Assembly: GCA_017676145.1 (NCBI GenBank)
Contig: GCA_017676145.1_3628.1
Source of the DNA: a phage
Reading direction: 5' to 3' (one strand)
Length of the DNA stretch: 64,000 nt
Shown here piece by piece: positions 697-24,946 of this stretch. The position numbers and the translations under genes were made by a program. The notes beneath the pieces were generated by a model that had not been told where the DNA came from, ran no database searches, and was given only the letters and a program-made list of their open reading frames with translations. Numbering within the stretch: position 1 is the stretch's first letter; each line of letters begins with the position of its first letter.

Positions 697-1392
697 TTAA
701 ATAAATTTCACCAATGTTATAGTCTCCTTATTATTTTTCAAATCATTCTCAAGGATAGTTATTGCACGTTTAATGGCGAACAGCCAAATCTCATCTTTGT
801 TTTTAATAGCCTGAAGTTTCATCTCCTCAAGTTTCATTTCTTGCCACACCTTGTGTGCTGTCTGTGGATCATCGAAATGACCGCCATGAACAATTTTTCC
901 ATCTCGATGACAATGCACGAGATACTTGTTTACATCTTTTCTAAGTGTCACACCCAAAGGTAAATCCCCTCGTGCTGCCTGTCTTATGCCAAATAGGGTG
1001 TTTATTTGTGGTGGAACAAACATGCATGTTTCTGGGGAGTATATTCTGTTTCCAGGGATTTTCAGATCTTTGTCAAGAGTGAACTTCTTAGCGTCTCTTT
1101 TCCACTCTTGTGTATCCATCCATTTCCAGAATTCTGAGAACAACCACCAATCTTCTACAACTTCACAACCTGTATGGTACTTTGAGTTATCGCCGTAGCA
1201 CCTCTGGAATAATGCTTTCCATGTAGCATAGTGGGGTTCTGGTACTCTCTTACCATTAACAGATTGGTACATTGGGACTTTGTCTTTTAAATCGTTTACT
1301 CCACGACCACATACTTTTCTGTCTTTAACAGGTATTCCCATCAATCCCACCTTTTCCTTTGTACATGCGTAGAGGTATAGTCTTTGTAACAT
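697..1392 (-). CDS. Putative homing-endonuclease-like DNA-binding protein with AP2-like motif
   Basis: 231-aa ORF; C-terminal GVTLRKDVNKYLVHCHRDGKIVHGGHFDDPQTAHKVWQE resembles the AP2-type domain found in phage HNH-AP2 homing endonucleases; Trp/Cys-rich N-terminal half; true start may be an internal Met (e.g. 1272). Confidence 0.35.
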   Translation of the reverse strand: MLQRLYLYACTKEKVGLMGIPVKDRKVCGRGVNDLKDKVPMYQSVNGKRVPEPHYATWKALFQRCYGDNSKYHTGCEVVEDWWLFSEFWKWMDTQEWKRDAKKFTLDKDLKIPGNRIYSPETCMFVPPQINTLFGIRQAARGDLPLGVTLRKDVNKYLVHCHRDGKIVHGGHFDDPQTAHKVWQEMKLEEMKLQAIKNKDEIWLFAIKRAITILENDLKNNKETITLVKFI

Positions 1393-1863: not shown

Positions 1864-2095
1864 CCTCCTTTGGTAGCTTGAACTCTGGCATAGCCATATA
1901 CGCTACAACAGGGTTGTGATCAAAGTAGAACTGACCGTTAATTATCCCGGTTTTACTCACATAGTTACCAGATCCTGCAAGAACAACCTCGCAAGCTCCG
2001 AAATCTACATTGCCATCCTCATCAGTCATGGCTACGATATACTTTCCTAGAGGCATGTTTTTAACTCCGTCTACAAATGTCCACCCTTTGTTCAT
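1850..2095 (-). CDS. Hypothetical protein
   Basis: 81-aa ORF in co-directional early-gene array. Confidence 0.4.
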   Translation of the reverse strand: MNKGWTFVDGVKNMPLGKYIVAMTDEDGNVDFGACEVVLAGSGNYVSKTGIINGQFYFDHNPVVAYMAMPEFKLPKEGADV

Positions 2096-2115
2096 ACTTT
2101 ATCTCCTGCACTTTC

Positions 2116-2448
2116 TTAAGGTAACCAGTAAACAATCTCGCCTTTCAGCCTCATGTCGTTTCCAACATAAATTTCCCAGCCATCCATCTTAGCAACTGTA
2201 GGCCCAAAGTCATCCGCACCCCTTACCTCTTTCCAGGCTCCGTAGTCAGGTTGCCAGATATAGAATCCACCTTCTTTGTCCCATGCTCCGTACACTACGT
2301 TTAACAGGTTTCCCATTGCAACAATGGTGGGCCGTGGGAATAATACATCTACAGATGCGCCACAATTTCGGGTATCTTTTAAGTTGCAATCCCAAAAGAT
2401 GTCTGCCAGTGTGGCGGCGATAGCTTTACGTCTTTCCAATGTTACCAT
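2116..2448 (-). CDS. Hypothetical protein
   Basis: 110-aa ORF in co-directional array. Confidence 0.45.
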   Translation of the reverse strand: MVTLERRKAIAATLADIFWDCNLKDTRNCGASVDVLFPRPTIVAMGNLLNVVYGAWDKEGGFYIWQPDYGAWKEVRGADDFGPTVAKMDGWEIYVGNDMRLKGEIVYWLP

Positions 2449-2458
2449 GGCACGATAC

Positions 2459-2650
2459 TCACTTGTTGTTAATAAGTTCTAAAACTTTCTGTCTTACTTT
2501 GTCAAGGTCTGTTGATTCAAAAACTGTGCGATATCCCCAACTTTGCCCATAGGAGTGACTGCAATCTCCGTAGCACCATTGCTCAATTTGATAGTATTCA
2601 AGGAAGGGGTGCTGTCTAACTATGATGCCATCCCGGTTAAAAATTACCAT
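2459..2650 (-). CDS. Hypothetical protein
   Basis: 63-aa ORF in co-directional array. Confidence 0.35.
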   Translation of the reverse strand: MVIFNRDGIIVRQHPFLEYYQIEQWCYGDCSHSYGQSWGYRTVFESTDLDKVRQKVLELINNK

Positions 2651-2713
2651 AATACGTCGCTCTCTGTTAGTCTGTGCGTATATTATACACTGTAGTTTTC
2701 AGATGTCAATCTT

Positions 2714-2965
2714 TTACAGGTTACTCCAGTATACTCGGCATTTACATTTCGGGCAATGAGGCTCTTTTATGTAATAACCATCAGTCTTTGGAACACTTTT
2801 TGGTGCAGTTTTAAGATTGTACCGAGTAAAACACCGGAAGCAGGTTACCTCTCCAACCTGTTGATCGTTTATCCACGCGCCAGAGTAAAGCTCTCTCTTG
2901 TTTCTCATAATTCTCTCCCAAATCCTCTGCAATCTTATACCAAAATCTCCAGCCAGAAAGCACAC
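2714..2965 (-). CDS. Hypothetical zinc-ribbon protein
   Basis: 83-aa ORF with CxxC...CxxC spacing (CFRCF ... CPKCKC). Confidence 0.35.
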   Translation of the reverse strand: MCFLAGDFGIRLQRIWERIMRNKRELYSGAWINDQQVGEVTCFRCFTRYNLKTAPKSVPKTDGYYIKEPHCPKCKCRVYWSNL

Positions 2966-3159
2966 GGGAACACTTTGATGATTGAATCTTTACCTGGTTC
3001 AGAAGTTCTTTTTCCGTAGGGTAGGTAGAAATGCCCTCCTGCAGATTCGAATATAGCTCCTTCGGTTGTATCTATCACAGCCAGAATTAAGATTTTAGTC
3101 TCCATAGTGTTCCCCTGTTTTAGTCGTTGTGGTGACTATACCACCTCAGAAGATGGTCG

Positions 3160-3618
3160 TCAACACTTTTTGTACTCCACCACAATCACATCAATGTCTG
3201 TGGTGGCAAGATTAATAACGTCTTCCACGTGTTCCCACTTTAGACCACCAATACCGCATCCGATTTTAGGAATGTAGAACGGTAATGACATACCTTTGAA
3301 TACCTCGTTGACTCGCTCAAAGCCTTTCATGATTGAGAAGTATTCAGCATTGGGCCCTGGGTAGAACTGGGTATACAGGTTGATTCCATATACGACCCTG
3401 TTCTTGGCAAAATGCTCCCAACAAGAAAACATGCCCAGCTTGTCTAGATTACCATAAGCAGTTTCTTTGTCGGCTGCCAGTGCTTGAGGGAACTCACGGG
3501 CAATATCTTTCGCTATACCTGCACCCATTGTGTGAAAGCAGTTACAACCGTGGATCATGTGGCCTGACCCTTTCTTGAAAATGGAGATTAGATCTCCACC
3601 TATAGTATCAATAATCAC
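3160..3618 (-). CDS. Macro-domain protein (ADP-ribose binding / ADP-ribosyl hydrolase family)
   Basis: Motifs GGDL...HMIHGCNCFHTMGAGIAKDI match the macro-domain phosphate-binding loops; GTG start at 3618 preceded by GAGGAG chosen over the track start at 3717, which overlaps the upstream gene by 110 bp; ATG at 3699 is an alternative. Confidence 0.65.
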   Translation of the reverse strand: MIIDTIGGDLISIFKKGSGHMIHGCNCFHTMGAGIAKDIAREFPQALAADKETAYGNLDKLGMFSCWEHFAKNRVVYGINLYTQFYPGPNAEYFSIMKGFERVNEVFKGMSLPFYIPKIGCGIGGLKWEHVEDVINLATTDIDVIVVEYKKC

Positions 3619-4033
3619 GGTATGCCAGCTCCTCTTCCGCAATTTCAAAAAACTCAGTCCAGCACTGTGGCATATTGGAGTTACCGAAGTGGCTTTCATA
3701 GTAAAGGTTCTCACCACTCGGAAGATAGAAATCTGTTACCTCGTAGAATCCACAATCGTCGCACTCACCTTCTTCAAACTTGGCCTCAACCTTGATACCG
3801 AGGAAGGTGAAAAGTTTATGGATATCTTCAGTTTCGAACTCCCAGTGAATGTTGTTTTCCGCATCGGTGTAGAACTGGATCAGCAGACCATTGTCCAGTT
3901 TACCAAAATACTCTGTGAAGTAACTTCCTTCCCAGAAATCTTTATGACAAATAATATCCATGCGTTTGCCCATAATAATGGTGTGAGCGTTTTGGGCATC
4001 ATCACGAATCAGTTTTGGCATTTCATAGGTCAT
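3608..4033 (-). CDS. Hypothetical protein
   Basis: 141-aa ORF in co-directional array. Confidence 0.5.
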   Translation of the reverse strand: MTYEMPKLIRDDAQNAHTIIMGKRMDIICHKDFWEGSYFTEYFGKLDNGLLIQFYTDAENNIHWEFETEDIHKLFTFLGIKVEAKFEEGECDDCGFYEVTDFYLPSGENLYYESHFGNSNMPQCWTEFFEIAEEELAYRDY

Positions 4034-4101
4034 CTTAGTTCTCCGGGTTCAACAGGTGGTGGCGCTATAGGAAGATCATAAAACATGGCTATCACATCCT
4101 C

Positions 4102-4299
4102 TTACACAGGAATTGCTTCAAATAGACCGTTATCTATACCGTCCTTCAGATAGAGATTATATTCTATGTCTGTATCTGTATAAAGGGCAGCATCCAGCAT
4201 TCTATCTGTGAGTCCATCCATCGGGTGGAGAAACCACCACCCACGCCAGTCAAAGTAACAGCCTGGTGCATCTTCTCTTACACGGATTCGATAAATCAT
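4102..4299 (-). CDS. Hypothetical protein
   Basis: 65-aa ORF in co-directional array. Confidence 0.35.
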   Translation of the reverse strand: MIYRIRVREDAPGCYFDWRGWWFLHPMDGLTDRMLDAALYTDTDIEYNLYLKDGIDNGLFEAIPV

Positions 4300-4395
4300 G
4301 GGCAGTGGCCTCCTGTTAGTTATACATCCCAGTTTTCTTCGTTCATCACGTCCTCCCGTTCTATGAAGTTATAATTGCACACCTTTCAATCTGTG

Positions 4396-4812
4396 TCAAC
4401 AGAAAACTTCAACAAATTCTTCCACAGTTTTAATGTCGTGGGAAAAAGGTTTACGGCTATAACGGGCAATAGCACTATCAACCATCGCCCGGTACTCCAA
4501 ATCTTCAGAATATTTCATGAAGCATTGTAGCGTCTCTGGACAGATAGCTAAATAGCTCCACCACCCCTCTTCAGATTGGTAGTCGAATCCCATACTCTCC
4601 AACCACGAAGCATATACGCCTGCACCCTCAAGCCAGTGAGTATTTTCATCCAGAAACTTGTTAATAGACATGTGAGCTTCTAAGCATTTATCCAGCTCTT
4701 TTCCGTTAACCAGCCACGCACTGACAGTGGCGCATCCAAGGTCCACAGATTGAGTTGATAGATTGTATTGGTCATAGTTCTCAGGTTTAACAATGATATC
4801 TTCTAATGTCAT
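4396..4812 (-). CDS. Hypothetical protein
   Basis: 138-aa ORF in co-directional array. Confidence 0.5.
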   Translation of the reverse strand: MTLEDIIVKPENYDQYNLSTQSVDLGCATVSAWLVNGKELDKCLEAHMSINKFLDENTHWLEGAGVYASWLESMGFDYQSEEGWWSYLAICPETLQCFMKYSEDLEYRAMVDSAIARYSRKPFSHDIKTVEEFVEVFC

Positions 4813-4829
4813 TTTTCAGATCTCCTTAT

Positions 4830-4860
4830 ACAAAAATGCCCCACCCTTTCGGGCAGGGCT
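4830..4860 (-). terminator. Rho-independent terminator (minus strand)
   Basis: Hairpin gccccaccctttcgggcagggc (4838-4859) with an A-run on plus (U-run on the minus transcript); directly downstream of the CDS ending at 4875; identical hairpin recurs at 16641-16662. Confidence 0.6.
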
Positions 4861-4874
4861 ATGTCAGTTAGGTG

Positions 4875-5498
4875 CTAAAAGTATTCATAGAGGTATCCAT
4901 CGGGAGCTGGAATTTTTTCATGAATGTAGTAATCAACACATATTCCTGTTTCTCTTCTACAAGAATTGTGGGATACCCATTCTTTAAGAACGTTGCCATT
5001 CATGTCCAACCTCCTTACATTTTTACACCGTCTACCGCTGGTGCTTCTATGCAACAGAATATCCTCCGTCTGCTTGTCTTTATTTTCTCCCCAGGTCGTT
5101 AAACGGATATTATCAAAAGAGTACCCTTTGAAATCATCTATCCTGTCACAAGAGGGCTTTTTCCTTTTGTCGTATCCGCTGGCTACCCACTGGTCATACA
5201 ACTCTTTGTAACCGTTCAGGTATAGCCACTCCTTAAACTCTTTTTTGGTGTAAGTCGGAGGAGGGTGACCTCTTTGCTTGCTGTTGCACTTTTGAGCCTT
5301 GTACAACACGCGTATTACACCTTTTTCTGAAGAGTCGTGGGAAAACTGGTCAGCCTCCCTACTGGCCTTCTTACAACACTCTTTGCACTTATTAAGATGA
5401 CCGTCAGACATCTTTGGGTGTTTGTAGAACTCGGAGAGGTTTTTCACCTCTCCGCACTTGATGCACCTCTTACAATGCGTGGATTCTACTTTTGCCAT
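4875..5498 (-). CDS. Zinc-finger protein with degenerate HNH-like motif
   Basis: CKRCIKCG...CKECC zinc finger; [19 protein letters not shown] resembles an HNH core with His replaced; ATG at 5498 preferred over the track start at 5585. Confidence 0.45.
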
Positions 5499-6741
5499 AT
5501 TGCAAACCCACCGGAGCGAAAGGTATGTCATCACAGAAGTCATACTGTGCTGGATTCTGATCCATTGGGTCATCTTCCGCATCATCTACAGGAGGGGCGT
5601 CTACAGTGTTTTGCTGTGGAGTGGCTTCCTGTTTGGCAGCTTGAGGTTCTTGATGCTCAGTAGTCCCCGCACCATTCTTGATCCAATCGTACAACGGTTC
5701 AGCAAGATTAGTCAAGACATCTTTTGCCTCTGCAGTAATTGCTGCTGCAAAATCATCAACTTTCGTTTTCTTGTCAATACGGCGACAAGCGTTCAATACC
5801 GCGTTACCAACACTGGCACCTACTTCATCTTCAGTCCGGTTGGTGGCTTGAGCGTACTCTTTCTTAAGCTCGATGGTGACCACGTGCAATGTTTTAGCCA
5901 CATCTAAAGGGCTGTCAATCTTAAACCCGCGATCCAGAATGATCTGCAACGCATTGATACTGTGCCCTGTCTCTACACCAATGGGGTCGTAAGAGGATTT
6001 ACGCTTACCACCAGAACCTTGTGTACCGTTCTCTGCTTTAGGCGGGTAGGCCTTGAAGCCGCTGATAATATTCCCGGTGTCTTTGTCAACAATAGCTGCA
6101 ACACGACCGCCAACCACCAGATCTTTAAGCTGCTCATCAGTGACAACCATGGCACCTTCGCCAATCTTGTGGTCATTAACAGTAACCACGTTGCCAACAA
6201 TCTGAGTCACATCGCCATAGATGCGTAAAACGTCCTGATTGGCATTCTGCTGAGGTTTCTGCTTCTGACCTTGTGATTGTGCACCTTGTTGCTGTTTTTG
6301 TTGCTGTGGAGCTGCTGGAGCCTCTCCTGCACCCAGTTTGACCATCTTAGCCAGTGAGCCTTTGTAATAGGTCTTACCGTTATGCTCATTTGCCTTTAAA
6401 GGGATATTTACGATCCATCCTGGCGTTACTGTTTCCCACTTGTCATCAATTTTAACAGAGACGGAATCTTGATGACCAGGTTTGAGCAATTTATCACCCA
6501 TGCTGATCCAAACTTCTTCACCACCTTGAAGTAGGTTATCAGAAGAATCCAGTTCAGAAATCAGTAAAGAGATGGTATGGCTGGACTCGATTTTCTTACC
6601 TTGCCACACAGTGGTTTTAATACCTGTTGTAGGATCGGCACCTTTGATAGGCTTGATGCTGACACGTTTAATCATGCCGTGAGCCAGTAAAACAGTTTCA
6701 CGCGGATTCATCGGGTTAGCGAATTGTTGAATAACGCTCAT
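5470..6741 (-). CDS. Putative single-stranded DNA-binding protein
   Basis: 423-aa ORF; Q-rich linker [25 protein letters not shown]; acidic C-terminal region [23 protein letters not shown] containing the SSB-type DDIPF tip motif, followed by 15 further residues. Confidence 0.45.
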
Positions 6742-11296: not shown

Positions 11297-13726
11297 TTAT
11301 TTATGGTAATAAATAATCCGACGAACACCCTCATCATACCATCCACGCTTCACCAGCTGGTGGTGCATGAGGATTCCCACCAAGTCGCACAACGAGGCAC
11401 CGCCATTTTGCTGATATGCATTAAGCAAAGAGTGTTTAGAGCGGGTCCAAATGGCATGACCGTCAAAAGAGTAGATGAATTTCTTACCTGTTGCTTCCCA
11501 GAATTTCTCCAGATCCTCTTTACGCCCCTTAAGACCTGGGTTGGCATCCCAGAGAGCATCGATTACTCTCTGCCCCAGCTCTGGAGAGATATCCAGCATA
11601 TCTGCAACTTTATCTTTTTGTGCCCCGTACATAACCCCATACGTGACAGGCTTACCATCGTTACGAGACACCTCCCTGCCTGCTACTTTTGTATATGCCT
11701 CAGCATTGTTTTGGTGCGCATCTCCGTTACTTACAACATCATAGTACAGACCGTTGTCGAACTCAAAGGCACCCCAAGCCCCGATAAGCTGCTCTAAGTT
11801 GGACCCGTCAATACCGATCTCAAAGTATCCGGGAGGAACACCCCACAGACTACGCATCTCTTTACCCATAACCACTTTAGGAGATGGTTTAGGCATGTTT
11901 GCACAAATGCTGTGTTTCTGTCTGGAAGTGTTTGTTAATCCAGAACTTTTAGCAGGAAGCTTATGGTCAATCTTCAAACGTGGATGATTAAGAAGACCAG
12001 TATCAACCTTATCCTCCTTGATTGGATCAAGGACCGATCTACGGTTTCGCAAGGATAACCACAAGACGATATCTTTAGCCATCTCTCCGTTCAACTTTTC
12101 AAGATTCGGACATAGGTGTCCAAACGTATCTTTCAGTTGCGGAGAAGTAATAAGCGCTCTGGCTTTTCTACGTATCTTCCCAAACACTTCCTTTTTAATC
12201 CTTTCTGAGTTAGGGAAGCTTCGGAACTTGTGCACGGTTGTCTGAAACTTAGCATCAGTTTTGTTCCAGAAGTTTATAATTAGGTCACAATACTCTGACT
12301 CTAAAAGCTCGTCCATATATGCATATACTCGTGCATCAACATCAGCATCAGGCAGAGCTTTCTTCTTGCTGTCTTTAGTTACATCCTTAGTTCTCCACAT
12401 TGTTGGGAGCCAACCAGCACTAATCAGGTATCGCTTAATGTCGTCCTGATTGCTGATTTTCATAGGTATCTTGCAGTCAGGCATTCGCTTCTGCTGTAGG
12501 TCACTTATTGCCTGATCCATTAGCTCTTTAGGTAAAGGGTGTGGTGTAGAAGTTCCTTTGATATACCCCCTCAAGAAATCAGCCATCTTATCTGGGTCTT
12601 TACAGCCCATCTCTTCACACCATTTTATCCCCATTTTGCTGACATCCCCTGCAGAGGTAAATGCTCGCTTAGGAGGGGCTTTGAACTCTAAAGCGCTCAT
12701 GTCCACAGGATAGCCAAGCTTGTCTTTTAACCATTTCCAACCATTATTGGAGATTGTCCCATCCTGGTTAAACGGCTTTTCAGGGAACTTAGGCCGCTGA
12801 GACATTGATAACTCTTTTAAAGGAAGTTGTGGTTCAACACGATCAGCGATCTCTTTCATCCACGCATCGCAGCGGTCACGTAAAGCAATAGCCCCATCTA
12901 TGTCGAAATACACACCCTGTCGAGCCTGCAGCTCCATCAGGAAATGCTGCAGCATGCCTCGGCGTAATGCATTCTTCCAGGTAATCTTCTTGAATCCTTT
13001 AGGCTTCTCTTTGGCAGGGTCATACATAAAGTTCTGCATGTCAGATTTGCCGTAGAATACACCTTTTGATTCCGCTACCAACTCTTTCCAGAGCAACTCC
13101 TGGATGATAACGTCCTCGAACACACGATCCACATATTTCCACAGTGGAAGCTCACGCCAGTCATCGATTTGAACTTTCTGGTTACCAAGGGCATAGCCCC
13201 ATGCCATAAGGCCATGAGGCCCAACAGGTTGCATTTTCTTGGTAACTGGATTGAATACTGCGTCCGGACAACCTTTTGGCAAAGGGCGGTCAGGCCACAA
13301 GATTCGGCTCATAGCTAACGTATCAAACAGATTAACCTGGTGGTCGTTGATAGTTCCCATGCATTTAGGGTCACGGAACATATCAAAATGAATACCAGAT
13401 AATCTCTCCATCAGCATAAAGTCATAACTGTAGCAGTTATGGCAGTTCAAAGCTGTTGGTGACCAGTCGGAATTGCCTGTAAGCCAACCTTCCAACTCCG
13501 AAAAATCTGCTATGCGGACTTCAAAATCTTTATAAAGAGTTTTCTTTGCTAGAATAAAGTTCTTAGCCTTCTCTACATCCTCTTCAGAGTAGTGTGTGCG
13601 GTCATTTAGAGGAAGGAACAGCATAAAACGGTTCTTATTCAGCTCTTTAAACAAACCGCAGTGATAATAAAGATCTGGATCTTCCAGCAAGCCCGAGGCC
13701 TCCAGATCGAAAGACCACATACTCAT
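11297..13726 (-). CDS. DNA polymerase, family A (T7/Pol I-like) with 3'-5' exonuclease domain
   Basis: 809 aa; N-terminal exo motif FDLEASGL; motif A IGIDGSNLEQ; motif B RNDGKPVTYGVMYGAQ; ATG at 13726 preceded by AAGGAG. Confidence 0.9.
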   Translation of the reverse strand: MSMWSFDLEASGLLEDPDLYYHCGLFKELNKNRFMLFLPLNDRTHYSEEDVEKAKNFILAKKTLYKDFEVRIADFSELEGWLTGNSDWSPTALNCHNCYSYDFMLMERLSGIHFDMFRDPKCMGTINDHQVNLFDTLAMSRILWPDRPLPKGCPDAVFNPVTKKMQPVGPHGLMAWGYALGNQKVQIDDWRELPLWKYVDRVFEDVIIQELLWKELVAESKGVFYGKSDMQNFMYDPAKEKPKGFKKITWKNALRRGMLQHFLMELQARQGVYFDIDGAIALRDRCDAWMKEIADRVEPQLPLKELSMSQRPKFPEKPFNQDGTISNNGWKWLKDKLGYPVDMSALEFKAPPKRAFTSAGDVSKMGIKWCEEMGCKDPDKMADFLRGYIKGTSTPHPLPKELMDQAISDLQQKRMPDCKIPMKISNQDDIKRYLISAGWLPTMWRTKDVTKDSKKKALPDADVDARVYAYMDELLESEYCDLIINFWNKTDAKFQTTVHKFRSFPNSERIKKEVFGKIRRKARALITSPQLKDTFGHLCPNLEKLNGEMAKDIVLWLSLRNRRSVLDPIKEDKVDTGLLNHPRLKIDHKLPAKSSGLTNTSRQKHSICANMPKPSPKVVMGKEMRSLWGVPPGYFEIGIDGSNLEQLIGAWGAFEFDNGLYYDVVSNGDAHQNNAEAYTKVAGREVSRNDGKPVTYGVMYGAQKDKVADMLDISPELGQRVIDALWDANPGLKGRKEDLEKFWEATGKKFIYSFDGHAIWTRSKHSLLNAYQQNGGASLCDLVGILMHHQLVKRGWYDEGVRRIIYYHK

Positions 13727-23761: not shown

Positions 23762-24946
23762 TCAAGCTTTAGCTAAAATGGCGCTAAACTCTTCACCAAA
23801 CTCTTTTACAATCTTCATCAGGTTTGGGTATGCTTTGATCAGCTGAGCAACGATCTTGTCCCGGCCTTTACCAATAAGTAAGGCATTTCCTAGGGCGTTG
23901 GGTTTCATCATCGCCATAAAGACTGAGAATACAAAGTCTCGGTTCTCATCCTTGAAATTTTCCCAAAGGAAATCAAGGAAGTTTGCCACGCAGCTAACAA
24001 GATCTTCGTCTGAGACACTTGCATTTTCCATCATATTCCGAATAGCAATACAACCTTCAGACCCAAGAATCCACAAAATATCTGGCTGCTTAGGACCTAC
24101 ATACTCTTTGCAACCCCCTGCCATAATCCGACCGATTTCTGGCAAGTTTCGTTTCTTGGTGTGGTAGGTCCAGATTTCTACCGCTGCAGTGTGACCAATA
24201 GCACCTTGCAGAAGAACACGAGCCATAGCGTCAGAAATAATACCGCTGTCAAAATCGTGCAGGATGTCAGATGCAGCAACCCAAGATCGCGGTGTAGCAA
24301 AAGATGGACAATTAATCTCAGCCATAGCCTCATAATTATCGATAGCTGATGGAACTCTTTTCAGATATCCAATTACAGAGGAATGCACACCATTAAGGAA
24401 TGCGTAGTCCTCAATAAATACCTCTGCACTGCTTGTAACTTCTACAATGATAAAGCGGTTAGCCAGAGGGGCTTCGAGCGCTGAAAGAACAGCACCATCC
24501 GTAGCACGGTTACCTGCAGCTACAAAAACAGAGCCCTTAGGAAATGCATAGGTGCCGCACTTGTGGTCGAGCATAATTTGCATTGCAACCTTCTGCAGGT
24601 AGTTATCTGCATGAGTAAGCTCATCCAGAAAGATAATTCCGCTCCAGTCCGAGTCTGCAGGCCAAAATTCTGGAATTGCAAACACTGTGCGTGTAGTTCC
24701 ATCTGCCTCTACAGGGATAGGTAGTCCAGACAAGTCAGCAGGATCTTTATCTGACAGCCGCACGTCAACCAGGTTGTCATCTCGCTCACCGAACATATTA
24801 TCAGCAATCTGCTTCATCACCTGGCTCTTCCCCACACCCATCGGTCCTAAAATCAGGACAGATCGGTTATGACGCTGGGCAAATTGAATAATAGCTGGCA
24901 ACTCGCGGACAGTGATTTGACCACTTTCGAATACGTTTCTTGACAT
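23762..24946 (-). CDS. MoxR-family AAA+ ATPase (CbbQ/NorQ/CobS-like)
   Basis: 394 aa; Walker A LILGPMGVGKSQ; Walker B IIFLDELTHAD; sensor AAGNR; single AAA module of MoxR size. Confidence 0.8.
   Translation of the reverse strand: MSRNVFESGQITVRELPAIIQFAQRHNRSVLILGPMGVGKSQVMKQIADNMFGERDDNLVDVRLSDKDPADLSGLPIPVEADGTTRTVFAIPEFWPADSDWSGIIFLDELTHADNYLQKVAMQIMLDHKCGTYAFPKGSVFVAAGNRATDGAVLSALEAPLANRFIIVEVTSSAEVFIEDYAFLNGVHSSVIGYLKRVPSAIDNYEAMAEINCPSFATPRSWVAASDILHDFDSGIISDAMARVLLQGAIGHTAAVEIWTYHTKKRNLPEIGRIMAGGCKEYVGPKQPDILWILGSEGCIAIRNMMENASVSDEDLVSCVANFLDFLWENFKDENRDFVFSVFMAMMKPNALGNALLIGKGRDKIVAQLIKAYPNLMKIVKEFGEEFSAILAKA

Follow-up and report, generated by a model that had tools for sequence, protein, structure and literature searches.

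Within a 64,000-nucleotide stretch of phage DNA, referred to here as the window, a short minus-strand gene encodes a protein that an earlier note took to be a macro domain and a candidate counter-defence factor. The question that this locus raises is whether the product is indeed a macro domain and, if so, from what it would remove ADP-ribose. The window comes from a Vequintavirus, that is, an rV5-like E. coli myovirus, and its positions 2000-6000 share 93-96% DNA identity with about a hundred Vequintavirus phages. The macro protein is 99.3% identical to its counterpart in phage FV3 and 97% identical to that of the BASEL phage Bas59. Its orthologue in rV5 is gp204, which bears the RefSeq label “tk.4, phosphatase”, and other phage records label the gene ‘macro domain protein’. 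The gene is thus already annotated, its family was functionally characterised in 2025-2026, and it is not a new kind of system.

The macro-domain gene occupies positions 3160..3618 on the minus strand, where an open frame of 152 codons plus a stop runs without interruption from a GTG start (3618-3616) to a TGA stop (3162-3160). Its translation contains the motifs to which the earlier note had drawn attention, namely GGDL at residues 7-10, HGCNC at residues 23-27 and MGAGIA at residues 31-36. The GTG at 3618-3616 is taken as the start codon because four kinds of evidence converge on it. A Shine-Dalgarno-like sequence, AAGAGGAG, can be read from the minus strand at 3629..3636, 10 nucleotides 5′ of the GTG. 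Residue 1 of the resulting protein pairs with residue 1 of T4 Tk.4 upon alignment, the RefSeq CDS in rV5 has the same length as the gene (459 nucleotides), and the GTG is kept in both rV5 and phage WM. The same evidence means that the longer frame 3160-3717, which appears in a mechanical list of open reading frames, is not the gene; it was rejected, and its added N-terminus falls within the upstream gene.

The assignment to the macro domains is borne out by both profile search and structure prediction, and the resemblance is much stronger than chance would give. The protein matches the Pfam Macro family (PF01661) with an E value of 9.7e-6 and 26 bits, where the gathering score is 22, and the match spans profile positions 1-117 of 118. 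The earlier note had allowed that its reading would fall with a different predicted fold or with missing ADP-ribose-binding residues. An AlphaFold2 model, built with 85 relatives, gives a macro domain with a mean pLDDT of 96.4 and a pTM of 0.91, in which the three-layer α/β/α macro fold is present. The ADP-ribose-binding residues, which comprise N26, MGAGIA and IGCGIGG, are likewise present in the alignment. The viral structure in BFVD that the model resembles most is a macro domain from a Marseillevirus ‘SNF2 subfamily protein’ (39% identity, TM 0.93). Its ALC1-like combination of SNF2 and macro parts, here in a giant virus, is close to the phage Tk.4 type.

At the level of phage protein families, the macro protein matches PHROG 335 with an E value of 4e-59. 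T4 Tk.4 and the window protein match this profile over the same positions, and PhiKZ gp104 also belongs to PHROG 335. In the PADLOC library, DarG is the only model matched, and only its macro part (positions 9-143 of 329), with 45 bits for the window protein and 36 bits for T4 Tk.4. The NCBIfam model of DarG, NF048014, is matched at positions 9-143 of 338 with 44 bits, compared to an equivalog cut-off of 250. The window protein stands alone at 152 amino acids, without an extra domain or a linked toxin gene, and no DarT-like Pfam match was found among the flanking small phage ORFs. Its identity as a DarG antitoxin was rejected, since the score is far under the equivalog cut-off and the C-terminal domain, the catalytic lysine and a darT neighbour are all missing. 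As judged from sequence, the protein appears to fall into the ALC1-like subclass of TARG1, DarG and SCO6735, as the Vequintavirus counterpart of T4 Tk.4/AdfM. Comparison with rV5 and phage WM gives dN/dS values of 0.06-0.14 for the macro gene, which is therefore under purifying selection.

The residues that line the presumptive active site can be followed across characterised macro domains. Correspondences were derived from the family profile aligned to PDB chains and from a MAFFT alignment with reference proteins, and the two agree. Asn26, whose codon lies at 3541..3543 on the minus strand (as do all of the following), aligns with DarG N22, SCO6735 N27 and PhiKZ AdfM N23, and is invariant in the 85 relatives. 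The preceding H23, kept in at least 90% of these 85 sequences, aligns with SCO6735 H24. Of the Gly-rich loops, the first, which binds ADP-ribose and reads MGAGIA (residues 31-36, 3511..3528), was placed from the alignments; across the 85 relatives its M31, G34 and A36 are invariant, and G32, A33 and I35 are each kept in 90% or more. The second Gly-rich loop, the phosphate-binding IGCGIGG (residues 119-125, 3244..3264), was located in the same way and contains G120 and G122, both invariant in the 85 relatives and corresponding to SCO6735 G126 and G128; like the first loop, it consists of positions that are either invariant or kept in 90% or more of these relatives. Gln84 (codon 3367..3369) stands where DarG (K80) and TARG1 (K84) have their catalytic Lys, and is equivalent to SCO6735 Gln85. 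It is invariant in the 85 relatives, and T4 Tk.4 likewise has Gln at this position. Finally, Gly124 sits where TARG1 has Asp125.

A guide to the chemistry of such a site is SCO6735. Hloušek-Kasun et al. reported that this enzyme removes ADP-ribose linked to thymidine in DNA and that it rescues cells from DarT (PMC9411070). In the same work the Q85A mutant is inactive, N27S is nearly inactive and G128E has reduced activity, while the loss in H24Y was put down to misfolding (PMC9411070). In the mechanism that the authors proposed, water mediates the reaction and the Gln holds the distal ribose in position (PMC9411070). In PhiKZ, the mutant of the conserved catalytic-site Asn, given as gp104 N23A in the Methods, also has reduced activity (PMC13309987). 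Gln in place of the DarG/TARG1 Lys, as in SCO6735, argues for a chemistry that is SCO6735-like rather than DarG-like, and hydrolysis by the window protein is probably that proposed for SCO6735.

Of the two routes to counter-defence that the earlier note had put forward, ADP-ribosylation and NAD+-derived signals, the former has gained ground, as the homologues T4 Tk.4 and PhiKZ gp104 act against DarTG2; nothing was found in support of the latter. A transposon screen for genes that T4 needs when its host carries DarTG2 gave tk.4 as its single match, and T4 becomes DarTG2-sensitive once tk.4 is cleanly knocked out; the gene has been renamed adfM (bioRxiv 10.1101/2025.11.20.689424). This evidence is genetic in kind and comes from a preprint. 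On plain K-12, T4 tk.4 is dispensable. In vitro, PhiKZ gp104, a chimallivirus DarG2-like antitoxin also termed AdfM, strips DarT2-made ADP-ribose off a DNA oligonucleotide; it also neutralises the toxicity of DarT2 and is required for growth on DarTG2 strains (PMC13309987). For Vequintaviruses, the HIDEN-SEQ screen of Bas54 reported other anti-defence genes and included no DarTG2 test among them, and a ‘macro’ entry is absent from its supplements. A literature search on Vequintavirinae and DarTG found no plating data.

The most likely function of the window protein, to which we assign a probability of about 65%, would be the removal of DarT2-type ADP-ribose from phage DNA by SCO6735-like chemistry. 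It appears considerably more certain that the protein has ADP-ribosyl hydrolase activity of one kind or another. Its likely target would be ADP-ribosylated DNA, as arises through DarTG2. Hydrolysis of thymidine-linked ADP-ribose and protection from DarTG2 are described in the literature for homologues, and from these we infer the same role here.

The proposed mechanism begins with a stand-alone, catalytically active macro-domain ADP-ribosyl glycohydrolase, which would be made from the replication-gene arm of the phage. This protein would bind the ADP-ribose that the host toxin DarT2 puts on thymidine in single-stranded phage DNA. It would then cleave the base-ribose bond to give free ADP-ribose and replicable DNA, and the restoration of replicable DNA would cancel the DarTG2 defence. 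In the active site, Asn26 would hold Gln84, and Gln84 would in turn position the distal ribose, with water doing the work and without a catalytic lysine.

The distance to the characterised homologues leaves room for other substrates. Identity is 39% to T4 Tk.4 and 22% to PhiKZ AdfM, so substrate preference could differ. Both the catalytic Lys of DarG/TARG1 and the lysine-bearing ‘mobile loop’ that helps SCO6735 to act on DNA are missing, which likewise weighs against the main reading. Moreover, SCO6735 acts on protein-linked ADP-ribose (PMC9411070) and also on uracil-linked ADP-ribose in RNA, and DNA may therefore not be the only or the main substrate. A protein that erases ADP-ribose from proteins or RNA and not from DNA, with DarTG2 protection secondary or absent in this phage, is nonetheless unlikely. 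In that case it might act on RNA bearing uracil-linked ADP-ribose, or on proteins of either host or phage that a bacterial ADP-ribosyltransferase, be it a toxin or a defence enzyme, has modified. However, T4 Tk.4, the nearest homologue with a characterised role, shows a phenotype specific to DarTG2, and there is no known defence by reversible protein ADP-ribosylation that restricts these phages. Reversal of the phage's own modifications would be without a partner, because no ADP-ribosyltransferase is annotated over the span of the window in phage WM, nor in the examined part of rV5. A NADAR partner was sought over the same regions along with the transferase, and none is annotated there either. 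It is quite improbable that the protein processes small ADP-ribose derivatives, such as ADP-ribose-1''-phosphate, on which the ‘phosphatase’ label is based, O-acetyl-ADP-ribose, and immune signals or toxic metabolites that derive from NAD+, even though Iyer et al. hold that phage macro domains mostly target such derivatives (PMC9503650) and the yeast enzyme Poa1p is an equally good structural match. The ‘phosphatase’ label goes back to an ‘A1pp’ motif and not to an assay, the sole functional data for PHROG 335 concern DNA-linked ADP-ribose, and no RNA-repair enzyme that makes such a substrate is annotated beside the macro gene.

The protein might also have a non-catalytic role, in which it would bind DarT2 and block it, or would serve as a sponge for molecules that contain ADP-ribose. 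Such an effect has a precedent in the catalytically dead SCO6735 Q85A, which still inhibits DarT in vitro via interaction (PMC9411070). In the phage family, however, the residues required for SCO6735 catalysis are invariant or nearly so, and an enzyme is therefore favoured over pure binding. The window protein also lacks the C-terminal DarT-binding domain of DarG, having 152 residues compared to 329-338 in the DarG models, and purely non-catalytic action is very hard to credit. The preferred reading remains the enzymatic removal of DarT2-made ADP-ribose from phage DNA.

The macro gene differs sharply from its flanks in how far it has diverged from phage WM. Its DNA identity to the WM gene (21160-21618 of L003) is 75-81% compared to 97-100% in both flanks, and its identity to rV5 is 91-97%. 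Against WM, dS is near 1 and dN/dS is 0.14, which points to the exchange of an old allele through recombination; positive selection as the source of the local divergence was rejected on these values. Bands of tblastn matches suggest that there are two protein-identity groups among relatives, at about 97% and about 80%. It looks as if Vequintaviruses carry two deeply diverged macro alleles that are swapped by recombination, the rV5 type and the WM type having about 80% protein identity. One possibility, doubtful for the present, is that Gln-type phage macro domains are broad erasers that, like SCO6735, take ADP-ribose off protein side chains as well as off DNA thymidine and RNA uracil, which would disarm more than one ADP-ribosylating defence, with the two alleles tuned to different toxins or substrates.

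Homologues of the macro protein were found by tblastn in 2,812 of 50,697 phage records, and ADP-ribose erasure is therefore a very common phage investment. The hosts are mostly enterobacteria, Pseudomonas, Vibrio, Acinetobacter and Aeromonas, and the phages are mostly large myoviruses. This distribution agrees with a survey in which 41% of myoviruses carry a macro domain (PMC9503650). A cellular origin as an orphan antitoxin was also considered. The one bacterial homologue examined, from Pelagimonas (P0057), stands by itself, without a nearby DarT and among unrelated genes that do not look like defence genes, and this sole case is uninformative.

The gene lies in a long minus-strand arm with rIIA/rIIB, helicases, primase and DNA polymerase, and many small unassigned ORFs surround it. 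Immediately upstream, at 3608..4033 on the minus strand, the ORF list contains a gene for a strongly acidic protein of 141 amino acids, which matches PHROG 8157 and has no Pfam match. The stop codon of this gene falls 11 nucleotides inside the macro gene, and this overlap makes co-transcription and translational coupling of the two genes probable. In the rV5 record, the counterpart of the upstream gene resembles a protein of phage RB49. The neighbours of the macro gene are without Pfam matches, with the exception of a protein of 64 amino acids encoded two genes downstream (2717-2908, minus strand), which contains the phage zinc-binding domain PF23903 (E value 8e-23). According to the rV5 annotation, the RB49 homologue of this zinc-binding protein has an accession consecutive with that of RB49 Tk.4 (NP_891661/NP_891662). 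PF23903 was nevertheless rejected as a conserved partner gene: T4 tk.1-tk.3 and vs are in other families or in none, and no conserved linkage emerged.

As to the timing of expression, a pattern scan of the region found 39 sigma-70-like promoter sites compared to 23 expected, mostly on the minus strand. Among them, the sites at 8477-8449 and 2709-2682 match the consensus perfectly; those at 4399-4371 and 4184-4156 are weaker. The site at 4371..4399 on the minus strand, TTGACA-17-AATTAT with an extended-10 TG, is a candidate sigma-70-type promoter by its match to the consensus, and it could drive a unit made up of 4299..4102, 4033..3608 and 3618..3160. Further upstream of this gene group, the scan also picked out a strong terminator-like hairpin at 4838..4859 on the minus strand, with a 9-bp stem containing 7 G-C pairs and a T-run, which may set the endonuclease VII gene apart from the group. 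In rV5, sigma-70-type promoters are annotated in the corresponding arm. These promoter annotations and the sigma-70-like sites make early or middle expression of the macro gene plausible.

Three other genes in the window are of separate interest. A 231-aa HNH endonuclease (697-1392, minus strand; PHROG 953, E value 5e-65) is encoded within about 750 bp that both rV5 and phage WM lack at this position, and the gene is therefore probably a homing-endonuclease insertion. A MoxR-type ATPase (23765-24946, minus strand) shares 100% protein identity with the MoxR ATPase annotated in phage WM. In the related phage Bas54, a MoxR ATPase (bas54_0063) is reported to be needed against the predicted defence system DS-28 (HIDEN-SEQ preprint). 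The DNA polymerase (11300-13726, minus strand) has 809 amino acids compared to 1132 in phage WM. Residues 1-671 and 996-1132 of the WM polymerase match contiguously, and its residues 672-995 are without a counterpart in the window. This means that the WM polymerase has an insert of about 324 amino acids, an intein or similar, that is absent from this phage. In rV5, several separate CDSs in the polymerase region are annotated as DNA polymerase.

For rV5-like phages, the analysis replaces the vague label ‘phosphatase/hypothetical protein’ with a specific assignment, a predicted anti-DarTG2 DNA ADP-ribosyl glycohydrolase. These phages are widely considered for therapy and for the biocontrol of E. 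coli O157. The analysis also reveals that PHROG 335 contains two chemically different versions, a Gln type that includes T4 Tk.4 and the window protein, and a Lys type that includes PhiKZ gp104. This split bears on the mechanism by which thymidine-linked ADP-ribose is hydrolysed.

Among known systems, the window protein differs in architecture from the DarG of DarTG2, as represented by the proteins of Mtb (5M3I), T. aquaticus (5M31) and Thermosipho (7OMU). DarG has a C-terminal DarT-binding domain and an adjacent darT gene, and the window protein has neither. In both the HMM and MAFFT alignments, the catalytic Lys80 of DarG is replaced by Gln84. The Lys84/Asp125 dyad of human TARG1/OARD1 is likewise gone, with Gln84 and Gly124 at the two positions. 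Yeast Poa1p resembles the window protein in both structure and sequence, and its phosphatase activity is the origin of the ‘phosphatase’ label on the phage family.

The Gln arrangement of the window protein is found in SCO6735 of Streptomyces coelicolor (PDB 5E3B) and in BT1257 of Bacteroides (2AFC/2FG1), which, unlike it, are cellular proteins. The ‘mobile loop’ of SCO6735 is 5-6 residues longer (QHGMKTGSKGAPVRY compared to QFYPG-PNAEY in the window protein). In SCO6735, Lys89 and Lys94 of this loop aid DNA binding, whereas the loop of the window protein is as short as that of DarG and TARG1 and has no lysine. In addition, Val25 of SCO6735 corresponds to Gly24.

Among phage proteins, PhiKZ gp104 is a stand-alone macro domain like the window protein, and the two have the conserved Asn in common (N23 and N26, respectively). 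Their identity is 22%, and PhiKZ keeps the DarG-type Lys (PTK) where the window protein has Gln (YTQ). PhiKZ gp104 is also imported into the phage nucleus, while rV5-like phages are not known to have one.

The nearest known system is T4 Tk.4/AdfM, the anti-DarT factor Macrodomain. T4 is a Tequatrovirus and the window is from a Vequintavirus, 61% of Tk.4 residues differ, and the gene neighbours are unrelated, being vs and tk.3 in T4 and PHROG 8157 and 15268 in the window. Of the pair, it is T4 Tk.4 for which an anti-DarTG2 phenotype has been described. Yet the two align end to end, with 39% identity over 150 of 152 residues (E value 7e-43), and both are single-domain proteins of about 150 amino acids. 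They share the HGCNC and MG(A/S)G motifs and a Gln at the catalytic position, and in both cases the gene sits among small genes for non-structural proteins in a large myovirus of E. coli.
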